Assembly: GCF_030684315.1 (NCBI RefSeq)
Contig: NC_081382.1
Span: 4,000,833-4,064,832, forward strand
DNA: 64,000 nucleotides
DNA from: Stegostoma tigrinum
Lineage: Eukaryota
Reading direction: 5' to 3'
Shown: positions 1 to 52,829 of the stretch, one piece after another
How the letters are laid out: the number at the start of each line of letters is the position of its first letter
How positions within the stretch are numbered: the first letter of the stretch is position 1
The notes under the pieces: generated by a model
Seen by the model: only the letters and a program-made list of their open reading frames with translations
Databases searched by the model: none
Told to the model about the DNA's origin: nothing
Translations under genes and position numbers: made by a program

Positions 1-105
1 AACAGTTTTCACTTGTTTAACAAAACTATTTGTCAAATCTCCTCTTAACCTTCTCTGTTGTAAAGTATATGCACAGATTGCGAGTTAGTCTCAAGGTGCT
101 GTTAC

Positions 106-272
106 CTGGAGGGGTATACACTGCAGGATTCAGCCAGTCCTGTTTGGTACTTTGAGCCACGTCTTCCTCAGCCTTCTCCATGGTCCAGTGCAGCATGTCA
201 TGTTTAACATCCAGCAGATTGACAAACGTGTCCAATCCAAGCAACACAAAATTACACCAATACCTTCCGAAT
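106..272 (-). CDS. Internal exon of a CHAT-domain (TTC28-like) gene: end of CHAT domain and following segment (R)FGRYWCNFVLLGLDTFVNLLDVKHDMLHWTMEKAEEDVAQSTKQDWLNPAVYTPP(G); gene continues left of the window
   Basis: Acceptor tttgtatctttgcag| and donor CAG|gtaaca on the - strand. 167 nt with an open frame in phase 2 to phase 1. Joins the 8470-8617 exon in frame (AG|A = Arg). 'W.xF.L.G.D' is the terminal CHAT motif (TTC28: WAGFMLIGSD). Confidence 0.8.
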
Positions 273-469
273 CTGCAAAGATACAAACTCTCCCTTAATC
301 CAGCAAAACAAATAATGAGAAATTACAATGATGTTAGGCAGTGACAGTGAAGTGGAGATCTGTGTGAATTAAGACCATCTCACAGGTTAGTAAGAAATTG
401 TACTCAGTTTTTAAAGTCTAAAAGTTAAAATCTGATGTCAATTAGTTGTAAAAACAATCTGGTATTGTC

Positions 470-890
470 CTCCAGGACAGGTCACCTGCTATTGACACCT
501 CATCCCGCTTCTGTGTAGTTTATATCCCAAAGGTCACCAAATTCTATCAACTTTATTCTGTGCTTGCTGACCTACACTGGCTCTCAATGAAGCAATACCA
601 CTATTTAAAAAATCTCACCCATGTCATCAATTTCCTCAATGGTTGCTTCTCTCCCCACCTCTGAAACGTTTTCTAGCCCTAAAACCTTCCCAGCTACATG
701 TACTCATCTAGTTCTGGCCTCTCGCACATGCCAGCTTTTAACTACTCCATTTGTGTGCATGCCTTCAGTAGCCTGGGTCTTACATGTTGGAAATTCTACC
801 CCAAATCTCACTTCTCCATTCTCTAGGCTCTTTCATCCATGAAATACGCCTTACAACTGAACTCTTTGTGCCAGATTTTGACATTAGGAG
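470..890 (+). mobile_element. Degenerate L2-like LINE 3' fragment
   Basis: Resembles the end of L2 ORF2 and its 3' tail (…ctacactggctc…atacgcct…ctctttg…). Heavily decayed. Confidence 0.4.
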
Positions 891-1169
891 TCAAAAGGAG
901 TGAGTGCAGAAGGAGTGACTGTGGCTGGAGAGGGCATAGACAGGAATGTGTATGGATGGAATTGAGTGCGGATGGATTGAGTGAGGATGGAGGGAACATG
1001 GATGGAATAAGTATGGATGGAGGGAATGTGGCTGGAGTGTGTCTGGGCAGGAGTGAGTGTAGATGTGAGTGAACATTGATGGAGTGATTTTCTGTCTGTA
1101 AAATTATCCACAATCTTCCAGCTGCCTGCAACTTCAAAACACCACTGGGTTCCTTGGCCAACATCTCTA

Positions 1170-1595
1170 CTGTGAGTTTGCTTCAGTGTCCTGGTGAGGC
1201 TCGGTGCAAACTGGAAGAACAGCTTCTCATTTTCTGCTTGGACTCTGCAGTCTTCAAGACTCAATATCTTATTCAATAATTTTAGAAACTGCACACCTTC
1301 TTCCATCCTTTACCCACCCTCACACACCAGGCCCTGTCAAGACATGGATTACTTTCAGCATAAGCTACCAATTCTCATCGACTCACTGTCCCCATTATCA
1401 GCTTTTCTCCTTCTCTGGCTTACCATCACACATCCCATTGTCTGTCTAACTCTCTCTTTCTGGCCTCATCTCCATCATATCTGTTTACTCCCCACTTTTT
1501 ATCTTTATCATATATACCACCTTTACCCAGCTATCATCAGTTCTGGTGAAGGGTCATTGGACCCCAAACATTAACTCTACTTTCTTTCCCCAGAC
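1170..1595 (+). mobile_element. Old Penelope-like element 3' fragment with a decayed hammerhead motif
   Basis: cagtgtcctggtgaggctcggtgcaaactggaagaacagcttctcatt resembles the GIY-YIG C-terminal region of the younger copies. It is followed by a pyrimidine tract and ctggtgaagggtcattggaccccaaac. Confidence 0.6.
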
Positions 1596-2625
1596 AGCGG
1601 GTTGTGATGGAGGGTTGTTTTTCAGACTTGGCCTGTGACCAGTGGTGTGCCACAGGGTCAATGCTGGATCCACTTCTCTACGTCATTTACATAAATGATT
1701 TGGATGTGAAGATCGGAACTATGGTTAGTAAGTTTGCAGATGACACCAAAATTAATTGAGTGGACAGTGAAGAAGACTACTTCAGAGTACAGTGGGAACA
1801 TGATCAGATAGGCAAATAGCTGAGGAGTGGGAGGTGAAATTTAATTTAGTTAAATGTGAGGTACTGCATTTTGGAAAGGCAAATCAGAGCTGGTCATATA
1901 CACTCAATGTTAAGTTCCTGGGGAGTATAGCTGAACACAGAGAGTTGGAGTACAGGTTCATGTTCCTTGAAAGTGGAGTCCCAGGTACACAGGATAGTGA
2001 AGAACGCATTTGGTATGCTTGCCTTTATAGGTCAGTGCATTGATTACAGGAGTTGGGAGATCATGTTGTGACTGTATAGGACATTGGTAATTGTGTGCAA
2101 TTTTCATTACCCTGCTGTAGGAAGGATATTGTGAAACTTGAAAAGGTTCAGAAAAAAATAAGAAGAATATCGCCAGGGTTGGAGGGTGTGAGCTACAGGG
2201 AGAGGCTGAATTTGCTGGGGCCGTTGTCCTGGAGCATTGGAGGCTGAGTTGACCTTATAGAGGTTTATAGAATCATGAGGGGTATGGATAGGGTGAATAG
2301 CCAAGGTCTTTTCGCTGGGTGGGGGAGTCCAAAACTGGAGGGCATAGGTTTAATGTGAGAGGGGAAAGATTTATAAGGGATCTAAGGGGCAACTTTTTCA
2401 ATGCAGAGGGTATGCACATATGGAATGAGCAGCTGGAGGAAGTGGTAGAGGCTAGTACAACTACAACATTTAAAAGATGTCTGGATGGGTATATGAAAGG
2501 AAGGGTTTTGAGGGATATGTGCGAAATGCTGACAAATTGGGCTAGACTAATTTAGGATGTTTAGTTGGCATGGACGAGTTGGACTTTAGAGTCTGTTTCC
2601 GTGCTGTACAGCTCTATGAGTTTAT
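1596..2625 (+). mobile_element. CR1 LINE, 3' part (RT C-terminus and tail), decayed
   Basis: Translations contain SGVPQGS, KFADDTK, KFNLVKCEVLHFGK and RGNFF…WN motifs with frameshifts. Confidence 0.9.
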
Positions 2626-2669
2626 GCAGTCAGACCTGCTGAGTTTCTCCAGCAATCTTTGATTTTGTT

Positions 2670-2980
2670 ATAAAAGCAAGGATGTTACGCTTTAGTGTAT
2701 TGCAGGGTATTGGTGAGACCACACCTCGAATACAATGTGCAGCTGAGGTCTCATTTATCAAGGAAGGATGTAAATGCATTGGAGGTAGTTAGAGGAGGTA
2801 TACTTGGAATGAGTGGGCTATCTTGTGAGGAAATATTGGACAGGCTGTGGGTGAGTCCAGAAACAGGACACACTGTTTTAAAATTAGGAGTCACTCTTTT
2901 AGGATGGATGTGAGGACAATTTCTTTCTTGCAGTGAGTTGTGCAACTTTGGAACTCTGCCTCAGAAGGAAATGGAAGCCA
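2670..2980 (+). mobile_element. CR1 LINE 3' fragment
   Basis: LVRPHLEYNVQ motif in ORF 2695-2913. Confidence 0.75.
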
Positions 2981-3795
2981 TTTCACATCCCCTTTTCTCT
3001 TTCTCCGCTATTAATAACCCTTCTATCTTTTGCATTGGGCCTGTATCTCTGTTAAGAGCATAAAAACTTTTTTCCAACATCTTTCTGTTCTGAAGAAGGA
3101 TTATACGAGACTCAAAATGTTTAGTTGTTTCTATTTCCATAGATGATGCTAGACCTGTTCAGTTTCTGCAGCATTCTCTGTGTTTGTTTCAGATTATAAC
3201 ATCCTTTGTTCATTGATTCTCAGCTGCTATTTTGTGGTGGAACATTAAGACCAATGAAAAAATTAAGTCCCTGTTTGGACAAGGTTTATGTCTCTGCTGA
3301 AGAGAAAGCAAGGAATAGCCTTGGCATCTCCTTCCTTGCCAAACAATGAGATAGCCTGAACTGTCCTCAGAACTGAGCAACTGGACACTGAAGAAAGTTT
3401 GGGCATTCTCTTAAACATTTGGGTAAAGCTTAAATGAAAGATTACTTCTCGAATGCCTAAGAAGCTTAGTTGGACTATGATGAGTTGAGAAAAAGGATGG
3501 TTCTTCCTTGGAAGAATACGTCATAATGTCAGCTTTTCTTCGAAATTCACTCATGGATGTGGGCATCACTAGCTAGCCAGCATTTATTTCCGGTCCTTAG
3601 TTGTCCATGAGAAAGTGGTGGTGATCTGCCTTCTTAAATTGCTGCATTCAATGAGCTGGGTAGTTGACCTCAATGCCCTTAGGCATAGAATTCCAGGATT
3701 TTCACCCAGTGACAGTGAAGGAACGGTAATATACTTCCAAGTCAGGATTGTGAGTGGCTTGGAGGGGAACTTGAAGGTGGTGGTGTTCCCATATA

Positions 3796-4072
3796 CAGGT
3801 GGTTCTGCTGTAATGCTTGTTTCATTAATGCGAATTGGCTGTAACATGATTGCTGAATAGTGGACTCACCCAGAACCTGTTCTATATTTCCTCACAATAC
3901 AACCCACTCATTCCAAGTATCAATCCAGTTTGGATAACACAAACTTTCTGCTGTGTGGATATAGCGATATTCTACAGCAATTTCCCTATAACATGATTTT
4001 CTACGGCAAGTTTCTAAAGTGTGATTTTCTATAGTGTGAGATCACATAAGAACGCAATAGGAGAACTACCTG
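3796..4072. mobile_element. Non-autonomous Tc1/mariner-superfamily (pogo/Tigger-like) MITE, 277 bp
   Basis: Terminal inverted repeats CAGGTGGTTCTGCT … AGGAGAACTACCTG flanked by TA at 3794-3795 and 4073-4074. Removing it rejoins the host LINE (gtgttcccata|tctgctgcccttgtcc). Confidence 0.75.
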
Positions 4073-4589
4073 TATCTGCTGCCCTTGTCCTTCTAGATGG
4101 AAGTGGTTGTGGGTTTGGGAAGAGGGTGTCTAAGAATCTACGGTGAAATTCTGCAAAGCATCTTGCAGGTAGTATACACTGCTGCAACTGACCACTGACG
4201 GTGGAGGGAGCGGGTGCTTGTGGATGTAGTGCCAATCAAGCGGGCTGCTTTGTCCTGGATGGTGTTAAGCTTCTTAATTGTTGTTGGGGCTGCACCCTCC
4301 AGGCAAGTGGGGAGTATTCCATCACACTCCTGACTTGTGCCGTGTAGATGGCAGGTAGGCTTTGGGGTGTCAGGAGGTGAGTTACTCGCTGCAGTATTCC
4401 CAGCCTCTGAACTGCTCTCATAGCCACTGTGTTTACGTGATAAGTTCAGTTGAGTTTCTGGTCAATGGTAACTTCAAAGATATTGATAGTTGTGGATTCA
4501 ATGATAAGAATACCATTGAATGTCAATGGATAGCGATTAGATTATTTCTTATTGGAGATGGTCATAGCCAGCCATTTGAATGGGGCAAA

Positions 4590-4965
4590 GGGTTGGCACG
4601 GTGGCTCAGTGGTTAGCACTGCTGTCTCATAACACTGGGGACCCAGGTTCGATTCCAGGTCATAGACTTCATTCACAAGTGACTCTTTGTGTGGAGTTTG
4701 CATGGTCTTCCCTCCTCTGCACGGGTTCCCTCCGGGTGCTCCGGTTTCCTCCCACAGTCCAAAAATGTGTAGGTTAGATGAGTTGGCCATGCTAAATTGC
4801 TCATAGTGTCCAGAGATGTGCAGCCTAGGTGGATTAGTCATGGGAAATGCAGGGTTACAGGGACAGGGTAGGGAGGCAGCTCTGGGTGGGATGCTCTTCA
4901 GAGGGTCATTGTGGATTTGATGGGCTCAATTGCCTGCTTTCACACTGTAGCAATTCTATAATTCA
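4590..4965 (+). mobile_element. HE1-type tRNA-derived V-SINE
   Basis: A/B-box head ggcacggtggctcagtggttagcactgctg…ggttcgattcc, V-domain gtgtggagtttgca…ccggtttcctcccacagtcc, CR1-like tail. Confidence 0.9.
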
Positions 4966-5734
4966 ATGAATGTTACTAGCTACTTGTCAGCCCAAAACTG
5001 GATATTATCCACATCTTGTTAGATTTGAACATGGACAGGTTCAGTATCTGAGGAATCACAAATGGTGTTGAACATTGGTGAACAACCTCACTTCCGACCT
5101 TGTGCTGAAAGGATGGTTATTGATGAAGAAGTAGCTGAAGAGGTTTGGTCTAGGACATTACCCTGAGGAATGCCTGCAGAGATGTCCTGGAACTGAGATG
5201 AGTGACCTCCAACAACTACAACCATCTTCCTATGTGTCAGGTATGATTCTAAACAGCAAAGAGTTTGCCCCCAATACCCATTTGTACCACTTTTGTTAAG
5301 GCTCCTTGTGCCACACTTGGGTGAATATGGCCTTGGTGTCAAGAGCTGTCACCCTCATCTTACCCCTGGAATTCAGCTCCGTTGTCCATGTTTGAACCAA
5401 GGCTGTCATGAGGTCAGGAGTTGGCTGATCTGGCAGAACCCAAACTTGGCATCACTGAGCAGGTTATTGCTGAGCAGGTGCTGCTGGATAGCTCTGTTGT
5501 TGATGGTTTCCATCATTTTACTGATGATCGAGAGTATACTGATAGAGTGGTAATTGACTGAATTGGATTTGTCCTGCTTTCTGTGTGCAGGAGATATCTG
5601 GGGAATTTTCTGCATTGTCAGGTAAATGCCAGTCCTATAGCTGTACTGGAACAGCTTAGCAAGGGGACAGCAAGTTCTATCATTGCCAGAATGTTGTCAG
5701 AGTCCAGTGCCTCCAAACATTCATTGATATCTTT

Positions 5735-7655
5735 GAAATTGCAGTGATTCCAGCTGGAAATGTCTACACCCGTACTTGCCTTCCAAGTATTGGACTGCAC
5801 AAGAATATCAAACAGAGACAGGCCCTTGATCTTAACCAGAATCTGATTGATGTGCTTTTAGATCAGATGTCAGAATCTTCAATATAATTTCTTTCGGCAA
5901 AGCATTCATTTTTGTCCATCTTCATGAGCTCATCGATAGTGACACCAAAAATGGAGAATACAATGCTAGGAGCATTTCAAAGTATGGGGCCGAAATGGCA
6001 GTACAAGGGAAAATTCACACATGAGAAGAATGACAATAGGGTGGCTATGATGGGCAGTTGTAGTGGAAGGGTGTACCACAGGAATAACTATGGGATGGTT
6101 AACAGATGTTCCAGATGTCACTCAAAGTATGCATTCAATTGCCCAATAACTGATACTTTAACATTGAAGGAGAGGAGGAGTCCCAACTGTTTGATTTATG
6201 GTACTGTGGAGTCCGTGGACCATGTGTATTTTGGGTGTGGGCATTTGCATTCCTTTTTTTAGTTACCTGAAGGACCTTCTCCTCTGCATTTGGTTGCACT
6301 TCAGCCCTACGCTCCTGATCTTTGGGCACCCAGTGTGGACGGGTGTGGGGAGGTCAGACGATCTCCTTGTGGGCCATGCTCCTGGGCCTGGCCAGCCTGG
6401 CTATAAGTACATTCAGGCAGCGGGCTACGGCTAACTGCCTGCCCCTTTTCTCCAGTTATGTTCCAGCCCATACTCTCAATGCCTTTAGAGAGAGGTGGGC
6501 ACCACGGAGGCTGAAGTGCTTTATTTCCCCTCCAACTTTATTTTGATTTGAATTTCTACCTTCCCTCTTCACTTTGTTATTATCATTAAAATTATTTTGC
6601 ACATGATGTTTTTAAGAAAAAAAGTGGAAGGAGAGGAGGATAATACTGACCAATTAGAAGGAACTGTATTAGTCACTAGAGATTTAGTCCAGTCACGAGC
6701 ACACTGGTTGGAGATGCATTCAGTGGTGCTATGGTAGACTGTTGGTATATGTTATCGATATGTGATTTGGACTTGTTAAAGTGTTACATTGATTTTCTAA
6801 GAGTGAATCAAGGACAAAGAATATGACAGCTCTATTTGATTCAGGTTGAATCTCGTTAGCACATTGAAATCTCTAAAATTAGTAGCAACTGTGTGTAGAA
6901 TAGCAGGGGAATATATCACTTTGTATGCAGTGACGTAGTATCCAGTGAAACAAGTGAGTCCTTGTTCAAAAAAGCCTAAATGGAGTTAGATATGAGGCAT
7001 GACAAATTGATTGTCTTTGGGAAATCTGTAGATTTGCAATTTACACAATCAGGACATTATCGTATACACTTATACAAGGCAGAATGTTAGAGGCATAAAA
7101 GGCACCCTTGCATAGGGATCTAAAGGAAAAGAAGCAGATTATTTCAAAGCTACATCCAAGAGTTTGCACATCTACCTTGTTATAACAGGTCTATCATGAT
7201 AGCTTCATTAAAGATCCTCACCAATAATGTTCTCTTTTATTTTTATGAAATTAATATCTTTCACAAACTAAAGGATACAAGAATACTGCACTGATCTTAT
7301 CAAAGATATTAATAGAAAATGAGGCATTTCTGAAAAAAAGGAGAAAGTCATTGAGATCTCTGCCAAGTGTTGCATTGGTGACGGACTTTAATGAAACCTC
7401 AGTTGTGGATGAAGACTTCCTTTTACATACAGACTAGACTTGGCCTGTCAATTGTAACTTATAGTAAATAGAGAAAATAATAATCAACAAGATGATGGCA
7501 AGATCGATAAGAATGAGGTTGGGAGCGCTAGCCAGATTCTAATGCACTGTGGAGGAGAATAAACCGATGAGAATTTTAGGAGTATGTGTGAGAATCTGAA
7601 TATTGCTGAAATGTGCATAGTGACAGGAAGTTCTTTAGAATAGAATTTATGACAA
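5735..7655 (+). mobile_element. Fossil Ty1/copia (GalEa-like) LTR retrotransposon: gag, protease, integrase; RT and LTRs not seen
   Basis: Decayed frames in copia order: gag PVLAFQVLDCTRISNRDRPLILT and RCSRCHSKYAFNCP knuckle; protease LVGDAFSGAMVDCWY…CYIDFL and VFGKSVDLQFTQSGHY; integrase KLH…FAH, DFNET, CGGE*TDENFRSMCENLNI. Confidence 0.7.
6150..6610 (+). mobile_element. Tx1/L1-like LINE 3' end inserted in the copia fossil
   Basis: C-terminal zinc-finger-like ESVDHVYFGC, then LLLCIWLHFSPTLLIFG and LLGLASLAI…FRERW, followed by a T-rich tail. Confidence 0.65.
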
Positions 7656-7659
7656 TCCT

Positions 7660-7895
7660 GTATCAATATCACCCCTTTCTTTTTCCTCAACTCCTCCTGC
7701 ACAGTCCAGCTGCCCATGATGCCCCAAACATGGCCTTGACTGCACTCCCCTGAGGAACCAAGACTGTCATCAGTTTCCAGGATGGAAAACTGATTTGTGA
7801 AAGGGATGCTGGGGAACTCCTGCACAGCCTGCCTGTTTCTATTGGTCAGCCTCGTGGCCACCCATTCCCTTTCTTCTTCCAGGAACCTAGGCTGT
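7660..7895 (-). mobile_element. CR1 ORF1 fragment
   Basis: QAVQEFPSIPFTNQFSILET…SGECSQ resembles the CR1 ORF1 segment preceding the esterase-like domain. Confidence 0.55.
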
Positions 7896-8469
7896 GGTAT
7901 ATATACTAAGGACGTGCTGAAGGGCTCTTGTGCTGCAGTGGTGGTGACCCTACATCTGGACCAGGAGGCCTGGGTTCACGGTCCACTAATCCAGAGGTGT
8001 GCATCAACATCTCTGAACAGGTTGATTAGAAAATATCAACCGAGATGTGTTAAAGTGTCCTATGGCACCATAGTAGTTTCCCAACCTGTGTGTTGGGCAG
8101 GGTTGTATGTGAATGTTTTGAATGCAGATGGTAGGTTTGCAGAAAGCAATAAACAGTCTCATTAAACTATTTTTGTCTCTGTGTATGCTCCTCAAATAGG
8201 TTTTGAAGTCTAATGATGATTGTGTTTCAGGAGCAATGAAAATGACAGCACCTGTGCACTCTACAGGCACATGCTGAGTTGGGGTTTCTGAATTGAAAGA
8301 CTACTTCTTAAAGCTATGCCCCTTTCCAAGTGTGTCTGTGAAAAGGGAAATCCTGAGCTATGGTCAGGCTTGGACCTCCTGAAATTCCAGGCAGCGTTCA
8401 GGAGCTGGTTTAAGACTGAACCCTGTGACGGTCCTTTCTACTCAGTAACCCGAAGCAGCTGTATTTTAC

Positions 8470-8617
8470 CTGGTGTCATTCTGCATCTGGTACTTTGCAT
8501 ATTCCATGGCACCACTGATGTAAGAGCCACTCCACAGAGCAATGTAGAAGTGATGATAGAAGGTAAGCAAGGCCTGCACAGGAACTGGTTTAATCTGTAT
8601 CAGCACAGAAGTAGCTC
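8470..8617 (-). CDS. Internal exon of a CHAT-domain (TTC28-like) gene: (G)ATSVLIQIKPVPVQALLTFYHHFYIALWSGSYISGAMEYAKYQMQNDT(R)
   Basis: Acceptor ctctctcatctttcaacag| and donor CAG|gtaaaa; 148 nt, phase 1 to phase 2. Aligns by eye with TTC28 CHAT GAQCVLVSLWPVPVAASKMFIHAFYSSLLNG…AL. Confidence 0.8.
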
Positions 8618-9071
8618 CTGTTGAAAGATGAGAGAGAGATTTAGTATGAAAGAGCTGATGCTTCCTGTTCACACTGGGAGACTTGTACCTCTAGCAGGTG
8701 CTTCCAGCCCTATCCTGTAATCTACTCTGCACTTTGATTAACCCGTCCCTTGTTTCCTCATAGATAAAAGAGATGGTAGCATGGTGGTACAGTAATGAAC
8801 TAGTAACCAAGAGGACTTGAATAATGAACTGGAGATAATTCAAATCCCATCACACATCAGATCGGGTCATTTAAATTTGATTCATAAATCTGGAATGAAA
8901 TGCTCATTAATAATAAAGACATTGCTGGATTGTTTTTAAAAAGCTATCTGGTTAACTGATGTCCTTGAAAAAGGGAAATCTGGCATCCTTTCCTGATCTG
9001 GCTTACGTGTGAGTCCAGCCCCACAGCAATGTGGCTGATTCTTACTTGTCCTCAGCAAGCCATTTAGTTGA

Positions 9072-9270
9072 GATAACAAGGTGTGGAGCTGGATGAACAC
9101 AGCAGGCCAAGCAGCATCATAGGAGCAGGAAGGCTGACCCTCTGAAGAAGGGTCTAGGCCCGAAATGTCAGCCTTCCTGCTCCTAAGATGCTGTTTGGCC
9201 TGCTGTGTTCATCCAGCTCCACACCTTGTTATCTCAGATTCTCCAGCATCTGCAGTTCCTGCTGTCTCTG
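9072..9270. mobile_element. Palindromic Penelope-derived mini-element with hammerhead motif; 15-bp TSD
   Basis: Two inverted partial copies. TSD aagccatttagttga at 9057-9071 and 9271-9285. Confidence 0.85.
9142..9169 (+). ncRNA. Minimal hammerhead ribozyme motif
   Basis: CTGAAGA-A-GGGT/CTAG/GCCC-GAAA-TG-TC. Confidence 0.55.
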
Positions 9271-10449
9271 AAGCCATTTAGTTGAACATGGTTTGCCATC
9301 TAATGACAAAGGGATATTAGAGATGGAGAAATGCTGCCCTCGCCAATGATATTCAAAATCTGAGAATGAATGACAAAATAGTTAATTGAGTAATGCATCA
9401 TATACACCCATCCTCAGCCTCGGTAGTTAGGCCGGTTATCAGAGTGGAGGCCGTCCCCTAGAAATCTCCACTTCAGCCCCATGGAGGGGGAACCTTGTCC
9501 TCCCTTGTCCTGTGGACAGGTCACTGACAGACTCCAATGGGTATTGGCAGTGACTTCACTCACAGTGCAGTCCCAGAGCTCCCACTTCAAGGGACAGGTT
9601 GCAATAAAGGTGAAGATCTTGATGGAATCCTTGAAGCTATCACAGGCCTCGGGTTTAAACTGTACCTGGAATTGAGTAATATCCATGTGCTGCCTAGAAC
9701 AACACTGCATCGGTGCTCTGGGGTCCTGGTAGAGAGATGTTATGTCTGAGGTATGTTCCCAGCAGATGGTACTACTGGGTAGATCAGGTCCCTGAATGAA
9801 ATCTGGCTGAACAGACCATTTGTTACAGTCACTCAGCATGGTGGTCATTCACTAGGAAATATTAATACTAGGCTGCAGATTCTCCTTAACAACAAAACAG
9901 ACCTGTATCACTAAAAGAACAATAAAGTAAAAACCCAAGCTACGTAATTAAAAGCGGAGAATGACCGTAAAGCAGACAGTAAAACAAAGTCTCAGCCTGG
10001 TTCCGATACTTTCCATTACACAGGCTCAAGTCCAGAGAAATTAGGCCTGATTTCAATCCCTTAAGATCTTTAACTGTCTCCTTACAGTTTCATTGTTGTG
10101 GCCTGTAGAGATCTTTTGATGAGTCCTTTATACATTTGTCGACATGAATCTTTTCATCAATCTGACAGCAACTGCAGCTTTCTAATGAAATTCTCCTGGT
10201 TTGGAAGCTTCACAAACTAAACCCTTCAGCTGAGGTGACTTATATCCTGAATAGCCCTGAATTCTATACAGAAGAGAAACTAGTCTTGCTTCGAAACATG
10301 ATCCCGGCGCCTTCTCAACTGAATTTGAAAATAAAATTGTTCTAACTTCTTCTGAACTGAAAACAAAGTTAATGTCCCGCATGAGTAACCTACCCGTTAT
10401 TAACACAAAAACATAAACATCTTTATGTTGACAACACAGGTCTGCAATC

Positions 10450-11952
10450 GTGATAACGGGAACCGCAGATGCGGGAGAATCCAAGATAATAAAGTGTGAA
10501 GCTGGATGAACACAGCAGGCCAAGCAGCATCTCACAAGCACAAAAGCTGACGTTTTGGGCCTAGACTCTTCATCAGAGAGGGGGATGGGGTGAGGGTTCT
10601 GGAATACGTAGGGAGAGAGGGGGAGGCGGACCGAAGATGGAGAGAAAAGAAGATAGGTGGAGAGGAGAGTATAGGTGGGGAGGTAGGGAGGGGATAGGTC
10701 AGTCCAGGGAAGACGGACAGGTCAAGGAGGTGGGATGAGGTTAGTAGGTAGGAAATGGAGGTGCGGCTTGGGGTGGGAGGAAAGGATGGGTGAGAGGAAG
10801 AACAGGTTAGGGAAGCAGAGACAGGTTGGGCTGGTTTTGGGATGCAGTGGGGGGACGGGAAGAGCTGGGCTGGTGGTGTGGTGCAGTGGGGGGAGGGGAC
10901 GAACTGGGCTGGTTTTGGGATGCGGTAGGAGAAGGGGAGATTTTGAAGCTGGTGAAGTCCACATTGATACCATTGGGCTGCAGGGGTCTCAAGCGGAATA
11001 TGAGTTGCTGTTCCTGCAACCTTCGGGTGGCATCATTGTGGCACTGCAGGAGGCCCACGATGGACATGTCATCTAAAGAATGGGAGGGGAACCATTGGGG
11101 AAACCAAGCGGAGGCTTGGGGACTGTTTTGCAGAACACCTCCGCTCGGTTCGCAATAAACAACTGCACCTCCCAATCGCGAACCATGTCATCTAAAGAAT
11201 GGGAGGGGGAGTTGAAATGGTTCGCGACTGGGAGGTGCAGTTGTTTATTGCAAACCGAGCGGGCGTGTTCTACAAAACAGTCCCCAAGCCTCCGCTTGGT
11301 TTCCCCAATGGTTCCCCTCCCATTCTTTAGATGACATGTCCATCGTGGGCCTCCTGCAGTGCCACAGTGATGCTACCCGAAGGTTGCAGGAACAGCAACT
11401 CATATTCCGCTTGGGAACCCTGCAGCCCAATGGTATCAATGTGGACTTCGCCGGCCTCAAGGTCTCCCCTTCCGCCACCGCATCCCAAAACCAGCCCATT
11501 TCATCCCCTCCCCCCACTGCATCACACCACCAGCCCAGCTCTTCCCCTCCCCCCACTGCATCTCAAAACCAGCCCAGCATGTCTCTGCCTCCCTAACCTG
11601 TTCTTCCTCTCACCCATCTCTTCCTCCCACCCCAAGCCGCACCTCCATTTCCTACCTACTAACCTCATCCCACCTCCTTGACCTGTCCGTCTTCCCTGGA
11701 CTGACCTATCCCCTCCCTACCTCCTCACCTATACTCTACTCTCCACCTATCTTCTTTTCTCTCCATCATCGGTTTGCCTCCCCCTCTCTCCCTATTTATT
11801 CCAGAATCCTCACCCCATCCCCCTCTCTGATGAAGGGTCTAGGCCCGAAACGTCAGCTTTTGTGCTCCTGAGATGCTGCTTGGCCTGCTGTGTTCATCCA
11901 GCTTCACACTTTATTATCTCGGATTCTCCAGCATCTGCAGTTCCCATTGTCA
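10450..11952. mobile_element. 1.5-kb inverted-repeat (fold-back) Penelope-like element, GIY-YIG 3' part plus pLTR in both orientations
   Basis: Arms ~10450-11186 and ~11217-11952 are reverse complements. Mirror-image ORFs (LQEQQLIFRLGTLQPNGINVDF) appear on both strands. Confidence 0.9.
11827..11854 (+). ncRNA. Minimal type I hammerhead ribozyme motif (intact core), predicted cleavage after C11854
   Basis: CTGATGA-A-GGGT/CTAG/GCCC-GAAA-CG-TC. Palindromic ACGT at helix III, as in Penelope-associated minimal hammerheads. Confidence 0.7.
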
Positions 11953-11954
11953 CT

Positions 11955-12395
11955 CACACATAGCAGAACACCCTCCTTATCTCACATCAATTGAGATGCA
12001 CTGTGAGATCCTTGAAAACATGGATCATCTTCTGTGCGTCAGGAGCCTCCTGATGGAAGGATAACTGTATCTATCATTGCTCCTTGCACCAGCTCCGCCT
12101 TCAGCCAATTGTGGAGAAGACCATTTGAGAAACTCAAACTCGAGACTAAGGAGATGGCAGCAGAGATCTAGGCCTAGTCGACCTGCATGAAGCACCTTAA
12201 AATATTGGAGACGTACCTCCTGAGGATCCTCTAAAGCCAGTGGTAAGAGAGTTGATCCCATAACAACATCCAAGTCATATAGCACAATATTGATGCACTA
12301 ATCATTCAAAAGCAGCTGTCTGGCCTGGACATGCCATTTTTATGTCTGACACCAGACTCCTGAAGCAACTGTATAAAGTATTTAGCACAGTGAGC
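11955..12395 (+). mobile_element. RTE-clade LINE fragment
   Basis: Decayed ILENMDH…, SSAFSQLWRR, KHLKILE…LRIL and MSDTRLLKQLY motifs typical of RTE ORF2 after the RT. Confidence 0.7.
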
Positions 12396-13039
12396 CCTTG
12401 CAGGCATTCAAGAGTTAATGGAAGTCGGGACCAAGGTGCAGGATTTGTGATTTATGTTATCAGTATTGTTTTTCTGAGTTAACCACAGCCTACTCAAGCC
12501 TTGGGAATGGTTTCATTGGTAGCTGACATGGGCCTCCTTGCTGTGATTTGCTGGGAAGCTGGTTATCTCTCTAATCTATGCCGTTTATCTGACACACAGT
12601 ACCAACTGGCACAGAGTCTTTAAGTCACAGCTACAGGGTGGCATTTACACGAAGGAGCACCTATTGTTGAAGAATTGACATTCAACAAGGACACAGCTTA
12701 CAGCGATGGAAATGCTACTCAGCTCCGTAGAGGTGATACACCATGAATCCTCAAAGGCTGACATCAAGGCAGTGAGCACTGCAGGACATCTGGCTTCACA
12801 GGTGAGTGTTGGGAATCCTGTTAAACTTGATAGTGCGCTCAGGCTGTAGGAGAGGCTGTCAATGCAAAACATGCTGATGGACTGGGAGGCATGGAAGCAC
12901 AAAGTTGGGAGGCTAGTATTGTAAACTTTGGCAAGCAGCAGCTTTTGCCAATCTGTCAGGAAGAAGCAGACTTTGATGTTAATGTCACTGCCAGTCGCAG
13001 GAAGACAGATTTTTACAATAATGTGGATACTAGTCTGGA

Positions 13040-13385
13040 TAGAGTCAATAGCTGAGGTCTTTTCCACTGGGTAGAGGAGTCTAAAACTAGAGGTCATAGG
13101 TTTAAGGTGAAAGGAGAAATATTTAAAAGGGACCTAAGGCATAATTTTTTTCAGGTGGAGGCTGGTGCATGTATGCAACAAGCTGTCGGATGAAGCGTTG
13201 GAGACTGGTATAATCACAGCTTTTAAAAGGCATCTGGATGGGTATATGAATAGGAAGAGTTTAGAGGGATATGGGCCAAATGCAGGCAAATTGGGCTAGA
13301 TTAATTTAGGATATCTGATCGGTCTGGACAAGTTGGAGCAAAGGGGCTGTTTCCATGCAGTATAATTCTGTGACTCAATGACTCT
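13040..13385 (+). mobile_element. CR1 3' tail directly upstream of the RING exon
   Basis: aaaactagaggtcataggtttaaggtgaaaggag…tttagagggatatgggccaaatg. Confidence 0.85.
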
Positions 13386-13415
13386 ATTCTCTTTGCTGAA
13401 GCACAGAGTAAAACT

Positions 13416-14681
13416 ATGGAGACACTGTGGACCTTTCAGGAGGAGAGTGAATCGAATGATGAAGGACAGCAATGCAGGATGTTTAATGAGCCAACTCACC
13501 CAAAGGTGGCTGAGAGACAAGCACTGAATTCTGAACAATCAATCCCTTCTGTGGAGCAGGCAACAAAGGGGATATTGTCTGGGCCCAGCCAAGGCCCTAC
13601 GGCCCAGTATCTCATGGCACATGCCAAGGAGAACAACCTTCAAGAGAAACAGCATTGTGAGTTTACCAGTGAGAGTGGGGTGAGCAATGACAATGTCAGT
13701 AACTGCAATGTTTTACAAACAGTGCAGATGGCAGCTGAAGCTTCAGTGACTCTTGTTGTTCCTCCTGCAACCGGTGACCCTACAATGTCTCAACAGGAAC
13801 GATCCAACTGGGATCACCCAACATCAACGGCTACAACGCAAGCCACCCAGGCGGACAGCTACTGTCATTCCCAGAAAAATCCCGCAGCCAATGAGACAAA
13901 TAGTAGGCTGGTAAAGAGTGGAGCATGCAGTTCAGTGGAGTCCCTGCTGGTCCTTGATGATGGAGCTCCCCTGTCTGTTATAGAGAAAGATGGGGGACGG
14001 GACACAGGAGGCAATTCCTTGGCCAGAGGCGAAAGAAGTCAGGCCATGTCTCCTGCAACAGGCAGTAAACTTGGGGAAGATAAAAATGAGCACAAAATGC
14101 CAGTGCTGCCTGATAATATGTGTGACACAGTATTGCATGTGACAATGGATAGTGAGGAACAGGAATGTCCCGTTTGTATTGAACTGTATGACTCTGGCAC
14201 TCACAAGCAGGCTTTGCTGAACTGCAACCATAGCTTTTGTGACAGCTGTGTGAAGAGCATTATGGAGAAGGCAGCAGTGAGCAACACAAGCCAGATCTGC
14301 TGCCCGATCTGTCGCCAGAGAACCCCAATGCCTGAGTGGGAGATCCGTCAGCTTCAGGAAGAGATGACGTGTTTAAACGGGGTAGTGGCTGGCAGATTGG
14401 TCATGATACCCACATCTCCAGCCCCACAGGAAAGGCCATGCATGAGGCTGCAGCAGGCCTTTCGTCAACGTTTGTTGACCACCCGGAGGTGTGGCTACTT
14501 GCCATGCCTGCAATACCCACTGTGGCTGGTAAATGCATTAGCACAGTGTGACCAGATATCACCATATTGTTACCTCTGCTCCATTCTCCTCCTGTATGGG
14601 CTGGAGTTACTGTGTCTTGCTCTCATCTTCACTCCTGTGATTATACTAATCTTACTTTTCACATTACTGGACAAAGAGTGA
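13416..14681 (+). CDS. RING-HC E3 ubiquitin ligase with C-terminal transmembrane region (RNF183/RNF186/RNF152-like group), 421 aa
   Basis: Uninterrupted 421-codon ORF. C3HC4 RING CPVC…CNHSFCDSC…CPICRQRT at ~14166-14315. Hydrophobic tail SILLLYGLELLCLALIFTPVIILILLFTLL. Low-complexity S/T/Q/E N-terminus. No orthologue confidently recognised. Confidence 0.85.
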   Translation: METLWTFQEESESNDEGQQCRMFNEPTHPKVAERQALNSEQSIPSVEQATKGILSGPSQGPTAQYLMAHAKENNLQEKQHCEFTSESGVSNDNVSNCNVLQTVQMAAEASVTLVVPPATGDPTMSQQERSNWDHPTSTATTQATQADSYCHSQKNPAANETNSRLVKSGACSSVESLLVLDDGAPLSVIEKDGGRDTGGNSLARGERSQAMSPATGSKLGEDKNEHKMPVLPDNMCDTVLHVTMDSEEQECPVCIELYDSGTHKQALLNCNHSFCDSCVKSIMEKAAVSNTSQICCPICRQRTPMPEWEIRQLQEEMTCLNGVVAGRLVMIPTSPAPQERPCMRLQQAFRQRLLTTRRCGYLPCLQYPLWLVNALAQCDQISPYCYLCSILLLYGLELLCLALIFTPVIILILLFTLLDKE

Positions 14682-14869
14682 GCTGATGGGAACATGGGTC
14701 ATAGACCCAGTCATCTACAATTAATATACCTGCATTAAAATAGGACAATGACAATCTGCAAACATTGCAAAACAATGCTAGACCTGAGTAAAACATTGGA
14801 ACTCACAGGGGATGGAATATAACCTGGAGGGAGGAGGAGCCCTGAGGTGTTAGGAGTACAGCAGATGGA

Positions 14870-15950
14870 ATCAGATATTGGGATTAGGCTGTGGAAGACC
14901 CAGTTGGATTAGGCATTGGAGTGACCAGGAACTGTTGGAATTGGGATTTAGAGTAAGTAGGGGCTGATGGATTGATTATTGGAATGAGCAGGAGGCAGTT
15001 GAATTGGTGATTGGGGTGAACAGGAACTGATTGGATGAGGGATTGGGGTGAACAAGAGCTGGTTGGATTGGGGATTGGGGTGAACAGGAGTTGATTGGAT
15101 TGGGGATTGGGGTGAATAGGAGCTGGTTGGATTGGGGTGAACAGGAGCTGGTTGGATTGGGGATTGGGGTGAACAGAAGCTGGTTGGACTGGGGTGAACA
15201 GGGGCTGGTTGGATTGGGGTGAACAGGAGCTGGTTGGATTGGGGATTGGGGTGAACAGAAGATGGTTGGATTGGGGATTGGGGTGAACAGAAGCTGGTTG
15301 GACGGGGGTGAACAGGGGCTGGTTGGATTGGGGTGAACAGGAGCTGGCTGGATTGGGGATTGGGGTGAACAGGAGCTGGTTGGATTGGGGTGAGCAGGAG
15401 CTGGTTGGATTGGGGATTGGGGTGAACAGGAGCTGGTTGGATTGGGGATTGAGGTGAGCAGGAGCTGGTTGGATTGGGGTGAACAGGAGCTGGTTGGATT
15501 GGGGATTGGGGTGAGCAGGAGCTGGTTGGATTGGGGATTGGGGTGAGCAGGAGCTGGTTAGATTGGGGTGAGCAGGAGCTGGTTGGATTGGGGATTGTGG
15601 TGAACAGGAGCTGGTTGGATTGGGGATTGGGGTGAACAGGAGCTGGTTGGATTGGGGTGAACAGGAGCTGGTTGGATTGGGGATTGGGGTGAACAGGAGC
15701 TGGTCGGATTGGGGATTGGGGTGAACAGGAGCTGGTTGGATTGGGGATTGGGGTGAACAGGAGCTGGTTGGATTGGGGTGAACAGGAGCTGGTCAGCTTG
15801 GGGATTGGGGTGAGCAGGAGCTGGTTGGATTGGGGATTGGGGTGAACAGGAGCTGGTTGGATTGGGGTGAACAGGAGCTGGTCAGCTTGGGGATTGGGGT
15901 GAGCAGGAGCTGGTTGGATTGGGATTGGTGGGAACAGAAGCTGATTGTTT
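14870..15950 (+). repeat. G-rich minisatellite of mixed 25-bp and 32-bp units (gaacaggagctggttggatt[ggggatt]ggggt), degenerate at the edges
   Basis: About 30 near-identical tandem units between ~15010 and 15930. Confidence 0.95.
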
Positions 15951-15975
15951 CAAGCCATTGTTTCAGACCTGTACA

Positions 15976-15981
15976 AATAAA
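15976..15981 (+). terminator. Candidate polyadenylation signal (AATAAA) for the + strand RING gene
   Basis: First AATAAA after the stop, with a T-rich stretch downstream. An alternative ATTAAA lies at 14734-14739. Confidence 0.35.
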
Positions 15982-16929
15982 CCCTTTCAAAGCAACACCA
16001 GTTTGAGAATCTTTGTTTTATTGCTTCCTCTGTGAAATGCAACAGGTAATCAGAACATCAGTCTGTGTGGATAATCTAGGATCTTGATTAATTCGTGATG
16101 GGAACCAGTGTAGATTCAGCCAAGGGTAGTTGATATTTCTATTAGAACAGGGCCTTCTTCTTAGGTTAAGAAGCAGCTGGAATAAGTTGGGTTACTGATT
16201 GGGGGATGAAGCTGTTTGATGTGAGAAGGAGCCAGTTAAGGGTTGTTGTGGTTTACTTTGCATGAAACTGTTTAGCGGCACGCCTTTTGCAGTGTTGCTG
16301 TGAGTAATATTGTACTGAACAGATTCACTGTTAAGTTGTTGCAGTTATAAACCCTGCACAGAAACTGTCAGCATTCTGAGTTAGATTGTTTGGAACAGTC
16401 ACCTGAAGGGAATCACATTGAATAGTAATATAGCTACTTTGTAGGGATCTGGCTACCTGCATGTATACGTTGGAATGGCTTAGAGTTACGGTATGTGAAA
16501 AGACAGGAAGGTAGAAATGTCAAACCAAACTTCAATTCAAAGCTTGAAACAGCACTTGTTTAACAAGAGTGAATATCTGTTAATTGGTTGAAGGCTATTC
16601 TATTCTTAAATTTTAAGAATATACACTTTGGTAGTAGAGTTAGTACGATTCATAAAAAGCATCATAGGTAAGTGAATAGCATAACTAAATAATAAATTCA
16701 CAACTCATTAAAAACGGCATCGCAGGAACTATGCCAAAGCTGCAGTATGTGAGAGCTTATGGATACCATTATGATACAGGGTAAACATATCTGCGGTAAA
16801 TGTTAAAAGGTTGAGCAGCTTTGGCTCAAAGATAGTGAACTGGGCCTGAACCACAGACACTGGAATGCATCAGGGAGAGTGAAAGTTACCTAGCTTCTTC
16901 ATACCAGGAGCCAGTCACACCTCTTAGGA

Positions 16930-17160
16930 TGAGATAGCAGGAACTGCTGATACTGGAGAATCTGAGATAACACAGTGTCAAGCTGGATGAACACAGCAGA
17001 CCAAGCAGCATCAGAGGAGCAGGAAAGTTGACATTTTGATCCTTCTTCAGAAGAAAAAAAAAAAAAAAATTCTGAAGAAGGGTCTAGGCCCCAAACGTCA
17101 GCTTTCCTGCTCCTCTGATGCTGCCTGGCCTGCTGTGTTCATCCAGCTCTACATCTTGAC
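16930..17160. mobile_element. Palindromic Penelope-derived mini-element with central poly(A)
   Basis: Opposed copies meet at two hammerhead remnants separated by an A-run. acacctctta occurs at both flanks. Confidence 0.8.
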
Positions 17161-17444
17161 ACCTCTTACGACATTGTGTCCTGATGTGGTCAGTGAGTCA
17201 GGGACAGGAGGATGTGACTGCAATTGAGGCATGTTAGGCACCTAGAGGAGGGGAGAGCCAGCCTCTGAAAATAGGTTTGATGAATGTGGGGCCTGAGGGT
17301 TGAATGAGTAAAATCAGCATGGTATCACGATACAGGAACACATTTTATGTGGATAGAGCCAAAAGGAATGTAATGGGACATTTGGGGATTGTCAGGGGGA
17401 TTTCTCTGCAGCAAACAGTGTGAGACCAGGCAGCTGTGTTGTCT

Positions 17445-17577
17445 CGGTGATAATGGGAACTGCAGATGCTGGAGAATCCAAGATAATAAGATGTGAGGCT
17501 GGATGAACATAGCAGGCCCAGCAGCATGTCAAGAGCACAAAGGCTGACGTTGCGGGCCTAGACCCTTCATCAGAGAG
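17445..17577 (-). mobile_element. Penelope-derived short element with hammerhead motif; TSD agctgtgttgtct
   Basis: TSD at 17432-17444 and 17576-17588. Confidence 0.85.
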
Positions 17578-19300
17578 CTGTGTTGTCTGTCTGGTGCAAG
17601 GGTCCAGTTTGTCTACTTTGGGCTGGAGAAGAGCTTGCAGTGGGAGGAGAAACATCCAGTCTCATGGTCTATGTAGGCACCAATCAAATAAGTAGAGCTA
17701 GGAAAGAGGCTTTACATAGTCCATTTGAGGAATTAGCACCAAAATTAAGAGGCAGAACTTTAGAGGTAATAATCGCGGGTCTATTACCTGAGCCATGTGC
17801 AAGTTGCTCGAAGGTAAACAAGGTTAGAGAGATGAATGTGTGACTGAAAGATTGGTGTGGGAGAAGTGGATTGGGGAAAAATGAGATCTGTACTGTTAGG
17901 ACTGTCTACACATGCACCACACTAAGGCTGGTGTTCCTGTGAACTGTATAACTAGGGAAGTACAGCAGGATTTAAAATAAATATTGGACCCTGACAGCCC
18001 ACATTTGGGAAGTTGTGGTGAATCAAAGAATGGGAAGAATGCAACAGAGAAAGGAATTAATGCGGGAAATGATAAAACAATGACAGGAAGGGAGAAAGAA
18101 CACATATCTAAGAGCAAATTGCCAGATAGGAATGGAGATGATAAAAGTAATAAAAGGGTGAAACCTAATGCACTGTGTTTGAATGCACATAGCATTCAAA
18201 CCAAAGAAACAAAGCAGATGAACCAAAAGTACAAATTGAAATAAATAGTATGATCTTATGGACATTACTGAGATGTGGCAATAGTTTGACCCTAGGCTGG
18301 GGCCTGAATATTGAAGCGCACGTGATATTTAGGTAGGACAGAAAGCTAGGAAAGGGTGGAGGAGTGGCTCTGTTAATTAAAGATGATATCGGTACAATAG
18401 AGAGGGATGACCTAAATTCAGGAAATCAGGATACAGAAGCAATCTGGATAGACGTAGGGAATGATAAAGGCAAGAAGTGACTTATGGGAGTTGCGTACCC
18501 TTAGCAGTAACCACATGGTAGGACAGGTACCAAGGAAAAAATAATGAGAGCTTGTCAGAAGGGAACAGAAATTATGATGATTTCAACATACATACAGACT
18601 GGAAAAAATCAGACATAGTAAAGGAGTATAGATGAGGAATTTATTGAATGTTTTGGGGACAATTGCTTAAACATGCATGTTAATGGAACCAACCAGAGAG
18701 CAGGCTATACTAGACTAAGTTTGACCAACGAGGTAGGTTTACATATTGACCTCATATGAAATCGTCCCGGGGTAGCAACCACCATAATATGATATAATTT
18801 TTACAGAGAGTTGAAGTGTGGGTCCAAGACTACAGTTTTAAATTTAAACAAAGGTCATGAGGGCAGGAAAGCAGAGTTAGTGAAAGTGAACTGGCAGTTT
18901 AGGTTAAGGGATAGGCCAATATACATGCTGTGGCAAACATTGAGGGGATTTTCTAGAAAGCACAGATTAGATACATTTCAACAAATAAGAAAAATATTCT
19001 AACGGACAACCCTCCTTCCATAGTTAACTAAAAATATCAAAAATCGTATCAAACTCAAAGAAAAGACATATAATTCTGCAAAGATTGGTGACAGGTCAGA
19101 GATGAACTGAATGTAAGAAGAAAAAAACCCAAAGAATTACTAAAAGATTAGAGTATGAGCGAAAGATAGCCAAAAATATAAAAACAGGTAGTAGACGTTT
19201 CTTCAGGTGCTTTAAAAAAAAGATTTAGTGAAGTAAATATTATTCCTGTAGTAGTCTGGGGAATTAGTAATGGTAGATAAAGACAACTGGATAAGTTGAA

Positions 19301-19440
19301 TAAGACCCTCTCTGATGAAGGGTCTAGGCCCAAAACGTCAGCTTTTGTGCTCCTGAGATGCTGCTTGGCCTGCTGTGTTCATCCAGCCTCACATTTTATT
19401 ATCTTGGAATTCTCCAGCATCTGCAGTTCCCATTATCTCT
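19301..19440 (+). mobile_element. Penelope-derived short element with hammerhead motif; TSD tggataagttgaa
   Basis: TSD at 19288-19300 and 19441-19453. Begins ctctctgatgaagggtctaggccc. Confidence 0.85.
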
Positions 19441-19789
19441 TGGATAAGTTGAACAGATATTTTGCATCAGTCTTCACTAGAGAGGATACAAGTAACATTC
19501 TGGAAATAGCTGTAAATCAATATTTGAAAGGGAGGGAAAAACAATCACCAGAGAAGTCATACAGAGTAAATTGTTGGAAGTGTCAGTTGACAAGTTCCAG
19601 GTTCTGGTGATTTCCATCTAGGGTATTAAAAGAACTGGGCAGTGAAATAGCTGATGCAGTGGTTTTAATTTTCAGGATATCATGAGCTGTGTGCCACAGG
19701 GGTCAGTGTTGGTGATTTATACAAATGATTTGGATAAAGGGATCGAAGATATGGAGCTAACTTTGTTGATGCTACAAAGATGAAGAAAA

Positions 19790-22180: not shown

Positions 22181-22235
22181 GTCCTGAGGAAGAGTCACCA
22201 GACCCGAAACATTAACTCTGTTTTCTCCTTCACAG

Positions 22236-22560
22236 ATTAGATTAAATTAGATTCCCTACAGTGTGGAAACAGGCCCTTCAGCCCAACAAGTCCACACCGC
22301 CCCTTACAGCATCCCACCCAGACCCATCCCCCTATAACCCACACACACCCTTGAACACTATGGGCAATTTAGCAAGGCCAATCCACCTAGCCTGCACATC
22401 TTTGAACTGTGGGAGGAAACCGGAGCACCCGGAGGAAACCCACGCAGACATGGGGAGAATGTGCAAACTCAACACAGACAGTCGCCCGAGGATGGAATTG
22501 AACCCGGTCCCTGGTTCTGTGAGGCTGCAGTGCTAACCACTGAGCCACTGTACCACCCCG
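22236..22560 (-). mobile_element. HE1-type V-SINE inserted in an older Penelope-derived short element
   Basis: Reverse-complement tRNA head and V domain. Host element pieces at 22180-22235 and 22560-22645. Confidence 0.85.
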
Positions 22561-23174
22561 AAATGCTGTTATACCTGCTGAGCTTTTCCAGCAACTTCGC
22601 TTTTGTTCCTGATCTACAGCATCCGCAGTTCTTTTGGTTTTTATTTGGCCAGATCCTGTTTGATTTTAATGAAATCAGCCTCGCCCAATCCAAAGCCTTC
22701 TTTCCTTGACTAATACATGGAATAAGCAGATTGCCTTATTAGGAAAGCCTAGACAGGCTGGGCCTGTATTTGCTGTCTAGAAGAGTCAGAGGTTAATTGA
22801 AACATATATAATCCTGAGGAATGTGCCTAGGTGGATGTTGAAAACATGTTTGCTCTTGTGGGAGGATCTAGAACTAGGGGTCAAAGTTTAAAAATAAGGG
22901 ACATCCATTTAAAACAGAGAAGAGGAAACTTTTATTTTCTCAGAAGGCTGAAAGTCAAAGGCAGAATCTTTAACTATTATTCAGGCAGAGGTCAATAGAA
23001 TCTCGATTCCCAAAGGGATGAAAGATTATTGGGAGATATGCAGAAATGTAGAGCTAAGGTTAAAATCAGGTCAACCATGACCTTATGAAAAGCATAGCAG
23101 GCCCAAAGAGCTGAGGCCTGCTCTTGTTCCTTTTTCATGTGTTCACTTGTACAGAGTGTTGCTATAAGTTTCAG

Positions 23175-23508: not shown

Positions 23509-23529
23509 AATTAAAAGCAAGTAACCTAT

Positions 23530-23680
23530 ACCCCTGCTGAATAAACAGTGATCATGTATAGATATTCAGTGAACAACACTTATCTCGCTGAATAAATTGC
23601 GATCCACTTACACAGTGAATAACCCTCACCTTGCTGAATAAACTGTAATCATGTATACTTACACAGTGAATAACCCATGC
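23530..23680. repeat. Diverged ~50-bp tandem repeat, ~3 copies (gctgaataaa…cagtgaataac)
   Basis: Recurrent gctgaataaa and cagtgaa motifs. Confidence 0.6.
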
Positions 23681-26160: not shown

Positions 26161-26164
26161 TGGT

Positions 26165-52820: not shown

Positions 52821-52829
52821 TTAAACAAT

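Follow-up and report, generated by a model that had tools for sequence, protein, structure and literature searches.

An intact TPR-CHAT-tandem-PUB gene of Stegostoma tigrinum, a probable ancient paralogue of TTC28 with an incomplete catalytic dyad

We analyzed a window of 64,000 nt from the Stegostoma tigrinum genome (G000, contig C37, positions 4000833-4064832), which carries two minus-strand coding exons of a large spliced gene, referred to here as the host gene, and two single-open reading frame (ORF) RING genes nested in one of its introns (Table 1). The host gene comprises 21 coding exons across ~264 kb, and both its start codon (C37:4222707) and its stop codon (C37:3958839) lie outside the window. 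A full-length relative matched 20 places on C37, and a spliced alignment over 464 kb gave 20 exons in a single open frame, to which a first exon beginning at the ATG was added; the complete ORF contains no stop or frameshift. The encoded protein consists of tetratricopeptide repeats (TPRs), a two-lobed CHAT domain, two PUB-like repeats, an acidic tail and, at the C-terminus, a motif specific to the family. Its N-terminal triplet of TPRs resembles those of co-chaperones, and most of the residues at the positions that we take to form the carboxylate clamp are missing in the alignment.

A sequence-only reading of the window had joined two minus-strand exons (8617-8470 and 272-106) in frame, and this splice proved correct. 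Exon 13 (148 nt; acceptor ...caacAG, donor GTAAAA) and exon 14 (167 nt; acceptor ...ttgcAG, donor GTAACA) join in phase 2 through an Arg codon (AG/A), exactly as they do in P0159, a RefSeq protein of 1,716 aa from Stegostoma tigrinum named 'tetratricopeptide repeat protein 28-like'. P0159 is identical to our gene model at 1685 of 1686 aligned residues and differs from it by seven residues owing to the choice of exon 9 donor, the P0159 site being the more canonical; the exon 10 donor is GC. In two sequencing runs (X1 and X2), contigs cross the exon-intron borders as genomic DNA would. The part of the window from 8618 to 64000 contains no other host-gene exon, and the sequence-only reading found no catalytic dyad because intron 12 is 156,814 nt long and the window holds just 55 kb of it. 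The dyad positions were indeed outside the window, in exons 11 and 12 (C37:4175373-4175154 and C37:4166485-4166264), 157 kb upstream. The gene is less hidden than had been thought: RefSeq holds models of the family in many sharks and rays, labelled 'TTC28-like'. Our search of the literature, with subscription papers mostly outside it, found no description of a TTC28-sister paralogue, and the gene, labelled automatically in RefSeq, is therefore annotated yet apparently undescribed.

Two kinds of variation were seen in exons 12-15. One contig of run X1 (depth 20) carries A instead of G at window position 8572, an allele that changes Ala to Val in exon 13. In RefSeq isoforms P0011 and P0013 (sawfish and stingray), either exon 12 with its Cys or exons 13-15 are skipped in frame, a change that would disrupt the CHAT fold.

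Table 1. Features of the window and of the host-gene introns (window positions unless a contig is named)
Feature	Position	Strand	Description
Coding exon 13 of 21	8470..8617	-	P0159 aa ~1023-1072; last core strand of CHAT and two helices
Coding exon 14	106..272	-	P0159 aa ~1072-1127; terminal CHAT strand (W..F.L.G) and linker helix to PUB-like repeat 1
Intron 13	273..8469	-	8,197 nt; GT-AG, phase 2; repeat-rich
Intron 12, 3' 55 kb	8618..64000	-	156,814 nt overall; GT-AG, phase 1
Intron 14, start	1..105	-	2,881 nt; exon 15 next at C37:3998056
Nested single-ORF RING gene	13416..14681	+	Antisense to host; 421 aa from first ATG; C3HC4 RING, hydrophobic C-terminus
Nested single-ORF RING gene	60590..61327	-	Host's strand; 245 aa; presumably RNF208-like
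Nested RING ORF, presumably RNF224-like	L019:7371-8246; G000:C37:4162203-4163078	+	Antisense; 3.2 kb into intron 12 from exon 12

The assignment of the joined exons to a CHAT domain also held. Exon 13 alone matched Pfam CHAT weakly (positions 224-269, E 0.12) and exon 14 alone had no Pfam CHAT match, but a profile built from 26 prokaryote-type CHAT domains gave the joined 104-aa peptide 11.4 bits, compared with 7.6 for the best of 1,000 shuffles, and P0159 matched Pfam CHAT (PF12770) over aa 741-1084 at 107.9 bits (cut-off 24; E 8e-31). Exon 14 is 69-93% identical to seven proteins, all of them chondrichthyan. The CHAT core was the best-conserved of eight segments in five of six comparisons, with identities of 82% to skate, 67% to chimaera, 46% to amphioxus and 32% to Nematostella. 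An AlphaFold2 model of aa ~558-1364 (807 aa; mean predicted local distance difference test score, pLDDT, of 82; predicted TM-score of 0.69) gave, over residues 1-540, structural matches to Csx29 (Z 24.6, root-mean-square deviation (rmsd) 3.6, 340 residues aligned), separases (Z 21-23) and DdvA (Z 18.9), and weaker ones to two ciliary central-pair chains (7n6g_1N, Z 16.6; 9ijj_B, Z 15.3). Foldseek placed separase, Csx29 and DdvA at E values of 1e-7 to 4e-4. The CHAT region is thus predicted to adopt the two-lobed separase/Csx29-type fold of the caspase-haemoglobinase group (clan CD).

The two dyad sites are readable in exons 11 and 12 as VHIATYG and VVLSSCG: the catalytic His position is occupied by Tyr951, and Cys1000 is kept. 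DdvA (8rot), a CHAT protein of solved structure, fixes the register, the His of its ATHG aligning with this Tyr. Alignment A2, in which isoforms and close relatives count as rows of their own, shows His at the catalytic His column in 0 of 31 family rows (20 Tyr, 9 Phe, 1 Pro and 1 Trp) versus 25 of 26 for the prokaryote-type ones. At the Cys column, Cys is present in 26 of 26 prokaryote-type, 12 of 12 chondrichthyan and 22 of 31 family rows, and Ala, Phe or Ile replaces it in the nemertean, one pair of rows and Ciona. Whether the domain is active can therefore be judged after all, contrary to the sequence-only reading, and the CHAT domain of this protein is very probably not a canonical protease. 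In TTC28 the His (followed by Ile) is kept and Tyr stands at the Cys column, so that the host-gene family and TTC28 lost opposite halves of the dyad. Strong conservation of a CHAT core without a full dyad would be the usual signature of a pseudoenzyme that keeps a binding role. Complementation in trans, with TTC28 supplying the His and the host protein the Cys, was considered and ruled out on principle, because the dyad lies on adjacent strands of one domain. As a separate observation, one of the 26 prokaryote-type rows (P0063) has Tyr at the catalytic His column and keeps the Cys.

The host gene was claimed to be distinct from TTC28, and several results upheld this claim. A separate locus on contig C34, which we take from its sequence features to be TTC28, was the sole locus matched in a genome scan with Pfam CHAT, a scan that gives a floor, since it missed the short exons of the host gene. 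The C34 locus has long exons for its TPRs, a ~700-nt exon that holds most of the CHAT core and a Ser-rich last exon of 597 aa. The CHAT cores of the two genes are identical at 69 of 198 positions (35%), whereas catshark and amphioxus members of the host-gene family share 46%. A HMMER search with the post-dyad half against 1.84 billion representatives returned 21 hits, including 7 named chondrichthyan proteins, 3 without a name and 11 named invertebrate ones (amphioxus, two hemichordates, two echinoderms, Ciona, two molluscs, an annelid, a nemertean and a flatworm); Nematostella was also among the named hits. Family members of near-full length have 1,300-1,800 aa, the same layout and a common C-terminal motif, which is present in Nematostella and has no match in the last exon of TTC28. 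A search of the ESM Atlas with P0018 returned just TPR-CHAT clusters with few taxa recorded.

In a tree of CHAT domains (42 rows, 304 columns; 20 outgroup rows assumed to be prokaryotic), built with a single TTC28, with regions cut by a family-built profile, with long branches and with no row left out, the 21 family rows formed one branch that excluded TTC28 (support 99/97). This branch was sister to TTC28 (100/99) and followed species order roughly, with amphioxus beside the chondrichthyans. Forcing the chondrichthyan rows to TTC28 cost 29.7 log units (approximately unbiased (AU) test, p 0.049, borderline). The gene therefore appears not to be an orthologue of TTC28, and we infer that the family split from TTC28 before the cnidarian-bilaterian split. 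The further claim that the sequence after the domain is unlike that of TTC28 survived only in part. The region is divergent, and judging from profile scores it is nonetheless homologous to its TTC28 counterpart, since the family profile scored 32.0 and 12.6 bits on the post-CHAT exons of TTC28.

In the AlphaFold2 model, the 240 residues after the CHAT domain form two alpha/beta-hairpin repeats. A second model, of P0001 (pLDDT 76.5), ends before the last helix. In it, repeat 1 matched the PNGase PUB domain 2hpl first (Z 9.0, rmsd 2.6, 92 of 100 residues), and the top seven structural matches were all PUB or gasdermin C domains, the latter at Z 6.1-7.9. Repeat 2 is PUB-like by weak internal similarity (hhalign E 0.004, probability 8%). 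The post-CHAT repeats are thus predicted to carry the PUB fold, although neither Pfam PUB (PF09409) nor Gasdermin_C matched any of 10 family proteins at E 2. The same holds for TTC28 (L045-L049, G000:C34:18.18-18.23 Mb), where two post-CHAT PUB-like repeats go unannotated by Pfam (best E 0.084, below the cut-off). For residues 569-807 of the 807-aa model, the best matches were gasdermin C domains spanning both repeats (5wqt, Z 9.6, rmsd 3.8, 160 aligned; viral A47 8gbe, Z 9.4; 7z1x, Z 8.8; 5b5r, Z 8.3). A repeat-2 profile ranked a gasdermin C-domain exon first among 2,517 ORFs of the genome (E 0.032), with a score above those of 909 background windows and 2,000 shuffles; with the same profile, however, two ordinary PUB exons scored higher (9.5 versus 8.0 bits), and hhalign gave probabilities of 4-11%. 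Foldseek with the shorter model found nothing at E 0.001, searches of the PDB and ESM Atlas with the post-CHAT sequence gave no usable match, and TPRs alone were among the matches listed for a PDB profile search with alignment A2. A genome search with PF17708 matched nothing, controls included, and is uninformative. We consider that the models suggest kinship of the tandem module with the PUB superfamily and a tandem layout in common with gasdermin C; a closer link is a lead only. Elsewhere in the genome, gasdermin N-domain matches occur at four loci (C41:9.43 Mb, C41:10.67 Mb, C2:54.97 Mb and C9:44.50 Mb).

Comparison with known systems helps to place the protein. With TTC28/TPRBK it shares N-terminal TPRs, a two-lobed CHAT domain, two PUB-like repeats, a long low-complexity tail and an incomplete dyad, but it is shorter, has its own C-terminal motif and a CHAT core spread across exons 11-14, and no named bony-vertebrate member was found. 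Prokaryotic Csx29/Craspase, DdvA and SAVED-CHAT share with it PF12770, the TPR-CHAT order and the predicted fold (Z 15-25), but keep the His-Gly and the Cys and lack PUB repeats and tail; signal-gated proteolysis is not supported for this protein. Separase (peptidase C50), an active His-Cys protease, has in common a helical solenoid followed by a pseudo-lobe and a caspase-like lobe (Z 17-23), at only 12-19% identity in structural alignments. The central-pair chains 7n6g_1N and 9ijj_B, presumably FAP46/CFAP46, are large solenoids whose C-terminal region matches the two-lobed model (Z 15-17) and which may offer a precedent for a structural role of the CHAT fold; they differ in size (2,600-2,800 aa), identity (13-15%) and the lack of any sequence-level match, and an axonemal role would be analogy only. 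The PUB domains of PNGase and UBXD1 and the gasdermin C domain (Pfam 'Gasdermin PUB', PF17708) share the PUB fold, and the tandem pair spans gasdermin C. P0159, in contrast, has no gasdermin pore-forming N-terminal domain (PF04598), and its repeats lack the NP.E.KY..I..N stretch of an ordinary PUB exon of this genome, a stretch with a role in p97 binding; such binding is therefore doubtful. The coral TPR-CHAT proteins have the same TPR-CHAT architecture but are tandemly expanded and variable, as far as the available portions of the sources go (PMC12314368, PMC9145168). Most metazoans are stated there to hold one or two TPR-CHAT genes (PMC12314368), and we found no description of the present orthogroup or its dyad in those portions.

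Taken together, these data lead us to regard the host gene as encoding an intact TPR-CHAT-tandem-PUB protein, an ancient TTC28 paralogue that probably serves as a binding scaffold without catalytic activity (a pseudoprotease); a scaffold is likelier than a protease because the catalytic His is missing. The TPR solenoid would capture a partner, and the caspase-like cleft, unarmed yet well conserved, would grip a peptide or the surface of a partner and leave it uncut. Docking of additional partners would fall to the PUB repeats and to the conserved motif at the C-terminus. The likeliest setting would be microtubular (centrosome, midbody or cilium), a step to which we give somewhat less than even chances. 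It draws on two analogues, the CHAT-fold central-pair proteins and TTC28, which according to the available part of the source localizes to the midbody together with Aurora B and tubulin (PMC11648667).

Several points weigh against this interpretation. The microtubule setting is its weakest step. The Cys is kept in every chondrichthyan row, and four invertebrate rows without it have a Cys one position earlier, so that some chemistry is possible. The separation of the gene from TTC28 is qualified by the borderline AU value and by a tree with one TTC28, a family-built cutting profile and long branches, and two family members (P0031 and P0036) are labelled plain 'TTC28' by their sources. Finally, the absence from bony vertebrates considered below rests on protein searches, in which representatives clustered at 50% can hide members, and G000 was the only vertebrate genome searched.

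Retention of the Cys raises the alternative of an active or conditionally active clan CD protease of non-canonical type, with Cys1000 assisted by another base, such as the upstream His947, or by none. His947 is invariant (21 of 21), the core is strongly conserved and the complete two-lobed separase/Csx29 fold is predicted. We nevertheless consider such a protease unlikely: the His947 column is conserved also in prokaryote-type CHAT domains, where the catalytic His follows four residues later, and lies in a core strand; each of the 31 family rows has an aromatic residue or Pro at the catalytic column; and the Cys itself gives way to Ala, Phe or Ile in some lineages. About as improbable, in our view, is a regulator of cell death or immunity, in which a dead caspase-like domain and a gasdermin-C-like module serve as decoy or adaptor in caspase-gasdermin signalling. 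The structural matches to residues 569-807 and the top rank of the gasdermin exon speak for it, and bacterial gasdermins, according to the available part of the source, lack the autoinhibitory C domain and often adjoin CHAT proteases (10.1101/2021.06.07.447441). Yet Z values below 10 for a helical domain are in the range of common arrangements, the shorter model ranks the PNGase PUB first, and ordinary PUB exons outscore gasdermin. The likeness of PUB to gasdermin was already known and, in the part of the source available, was judged insufficient for a common function (10.1101/187211), and the family, in contrast to the expanded TPR-CHATs of corals, is conserved and present in few copies. That the autoinhibitory domain of animal gasdermins is truly related to, and perhaps derived from, the tandem PUB of the family and TTC28, and that the protein is an ancestral caspase-gasdermin decoy or regulator discarded by bony vertebrates, seems to us similarly improbable.

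The size of intron 12 suggests another possibility, namely two transcription units, one for the 5' half and one for the 3' half, or a gene in decay, the break being at this 157-kb intron. Of 11 partial or variant models from other elasmobranchs, five stop or start there (P0014, P0169 and P0170 end at aa 1022-1023; P0001 and P0002 begin in exon 13), and one nested RING ORF lies on the host strand. The same breaks suggest that the intron is probably long in other elasmobranchs too. We judge a split gene to be more improbable still, given the open frame, the canonical and phase-matched sites at intron 12, and the full-length models that join across it (P0159, P0004-P0008, P0010 and P0012). Moreover, a split would leave each half with only part of the CHAT fold. 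The orthologues from invertebrates are each a single chain, and two of these chains are encoded on contigs of 5.6-5.7 kb that look like spliced transcripts. Least probable of all, and largely excluded, is that the gene is the shark TTC28 orthologue or a duplicate of vertebrate age. The shared domain order, the database label and the AU value would fit such a copy, but the canonical TTC28 on C34 with its differently built CHAT core, an identity below that between catshark and amphioxus within the family, the C-terminal motif shared with Nematostella and the 99/97 branch all run counter to it.

The gene marks out a second pan-animal orthogroup of TPR-CHAT proteins, apparently undescribed and lumped by databases under 'TTC28-like'. 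If the scaffold interpretation is correct, TTC28 and this family would be a pair of pseudoproteases with opposite dyad losses, so that the role of animal CHAT domains could be tested by comparison. The post-CHAT tandem PUB, without Pfam annotation here and in human TTC28, offers a lead to the origin of the gasdermin C domain.

Intron 12 also houses three RING ORFs. The ORF at 13416-14681 has a long low-complexity N-terminus and shares only 27% identity with the RNF224-like ORF across 71 aa. Exact look-ups with six variants of the three ORFs gave no match, and the names RNF208-like and RNF224-like stay our assumption. The RNF208-like ORF, being on the host strand, could permit read-through or alternative last-exon transcripts. 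Pfam searches of 150 of the 164 intron ORFs of at least 75 aa found the three RING ORFs and three retroelement fragments, a survey that genes with short exons could escape, and six flank ORFs had no Pfam match. Within 1.2 Mb, C37 carries exons for an ionotropic glutamate receptor (3.73 Mb), a FAD_binding_1 protein (3.03 Mb) and a Na/Pi cotransporter (2.80 Mb). These neighbors are consistent with the RNF208-RNF224 block of human (NDOR1, RNF208, RNF224, SLC34A3; PMC4074351) and turkey (NDOR1, RNF208, RNF224, LRRC26, GRIN1; PMC8470100), where the available gene lists, which are positional and omit unnamed loci, place no TPR-CHAT gene beside it.

Protein searches, either word-limited or against representatives clustered at 50%, found no named bony-vertebrate or cyclostome orthologue. 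Generic TPR proteins crowded a profile search with alignment A1, which failed to recover the family's own members from invertebrates, so that its bony-vertebrate null is weak. Loss of the family in bony vertebrates is likely but unproven; bony vertebrates would have lost the host gene, and the RING genes nested in its giant intron would have persisted. In that case this would be a further ancestral gene kept by sharks, and RNF208 and RNF224 would be former passengers in the intron of a vanished host.

Three other features were noted around the locus. Some 70 kb past the 3' end of the host gene lies a plus-strand ORF of 139 aa (L041:7365-7781) that resembles a signal-anchor first exon and has no Pfam match. 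At C37 ~4.245-4.30 Mb (L027-L033), starting ~23 kb upstream of the host start codon, is a ~55-kb tandem array with near-identical matches. Within the window, a purine-rich minisatellite (14903-15947) directly follows the RING ORF at 13416-14681, with units of 25-32 nt and higher-order periods of 57 and 89 nt.

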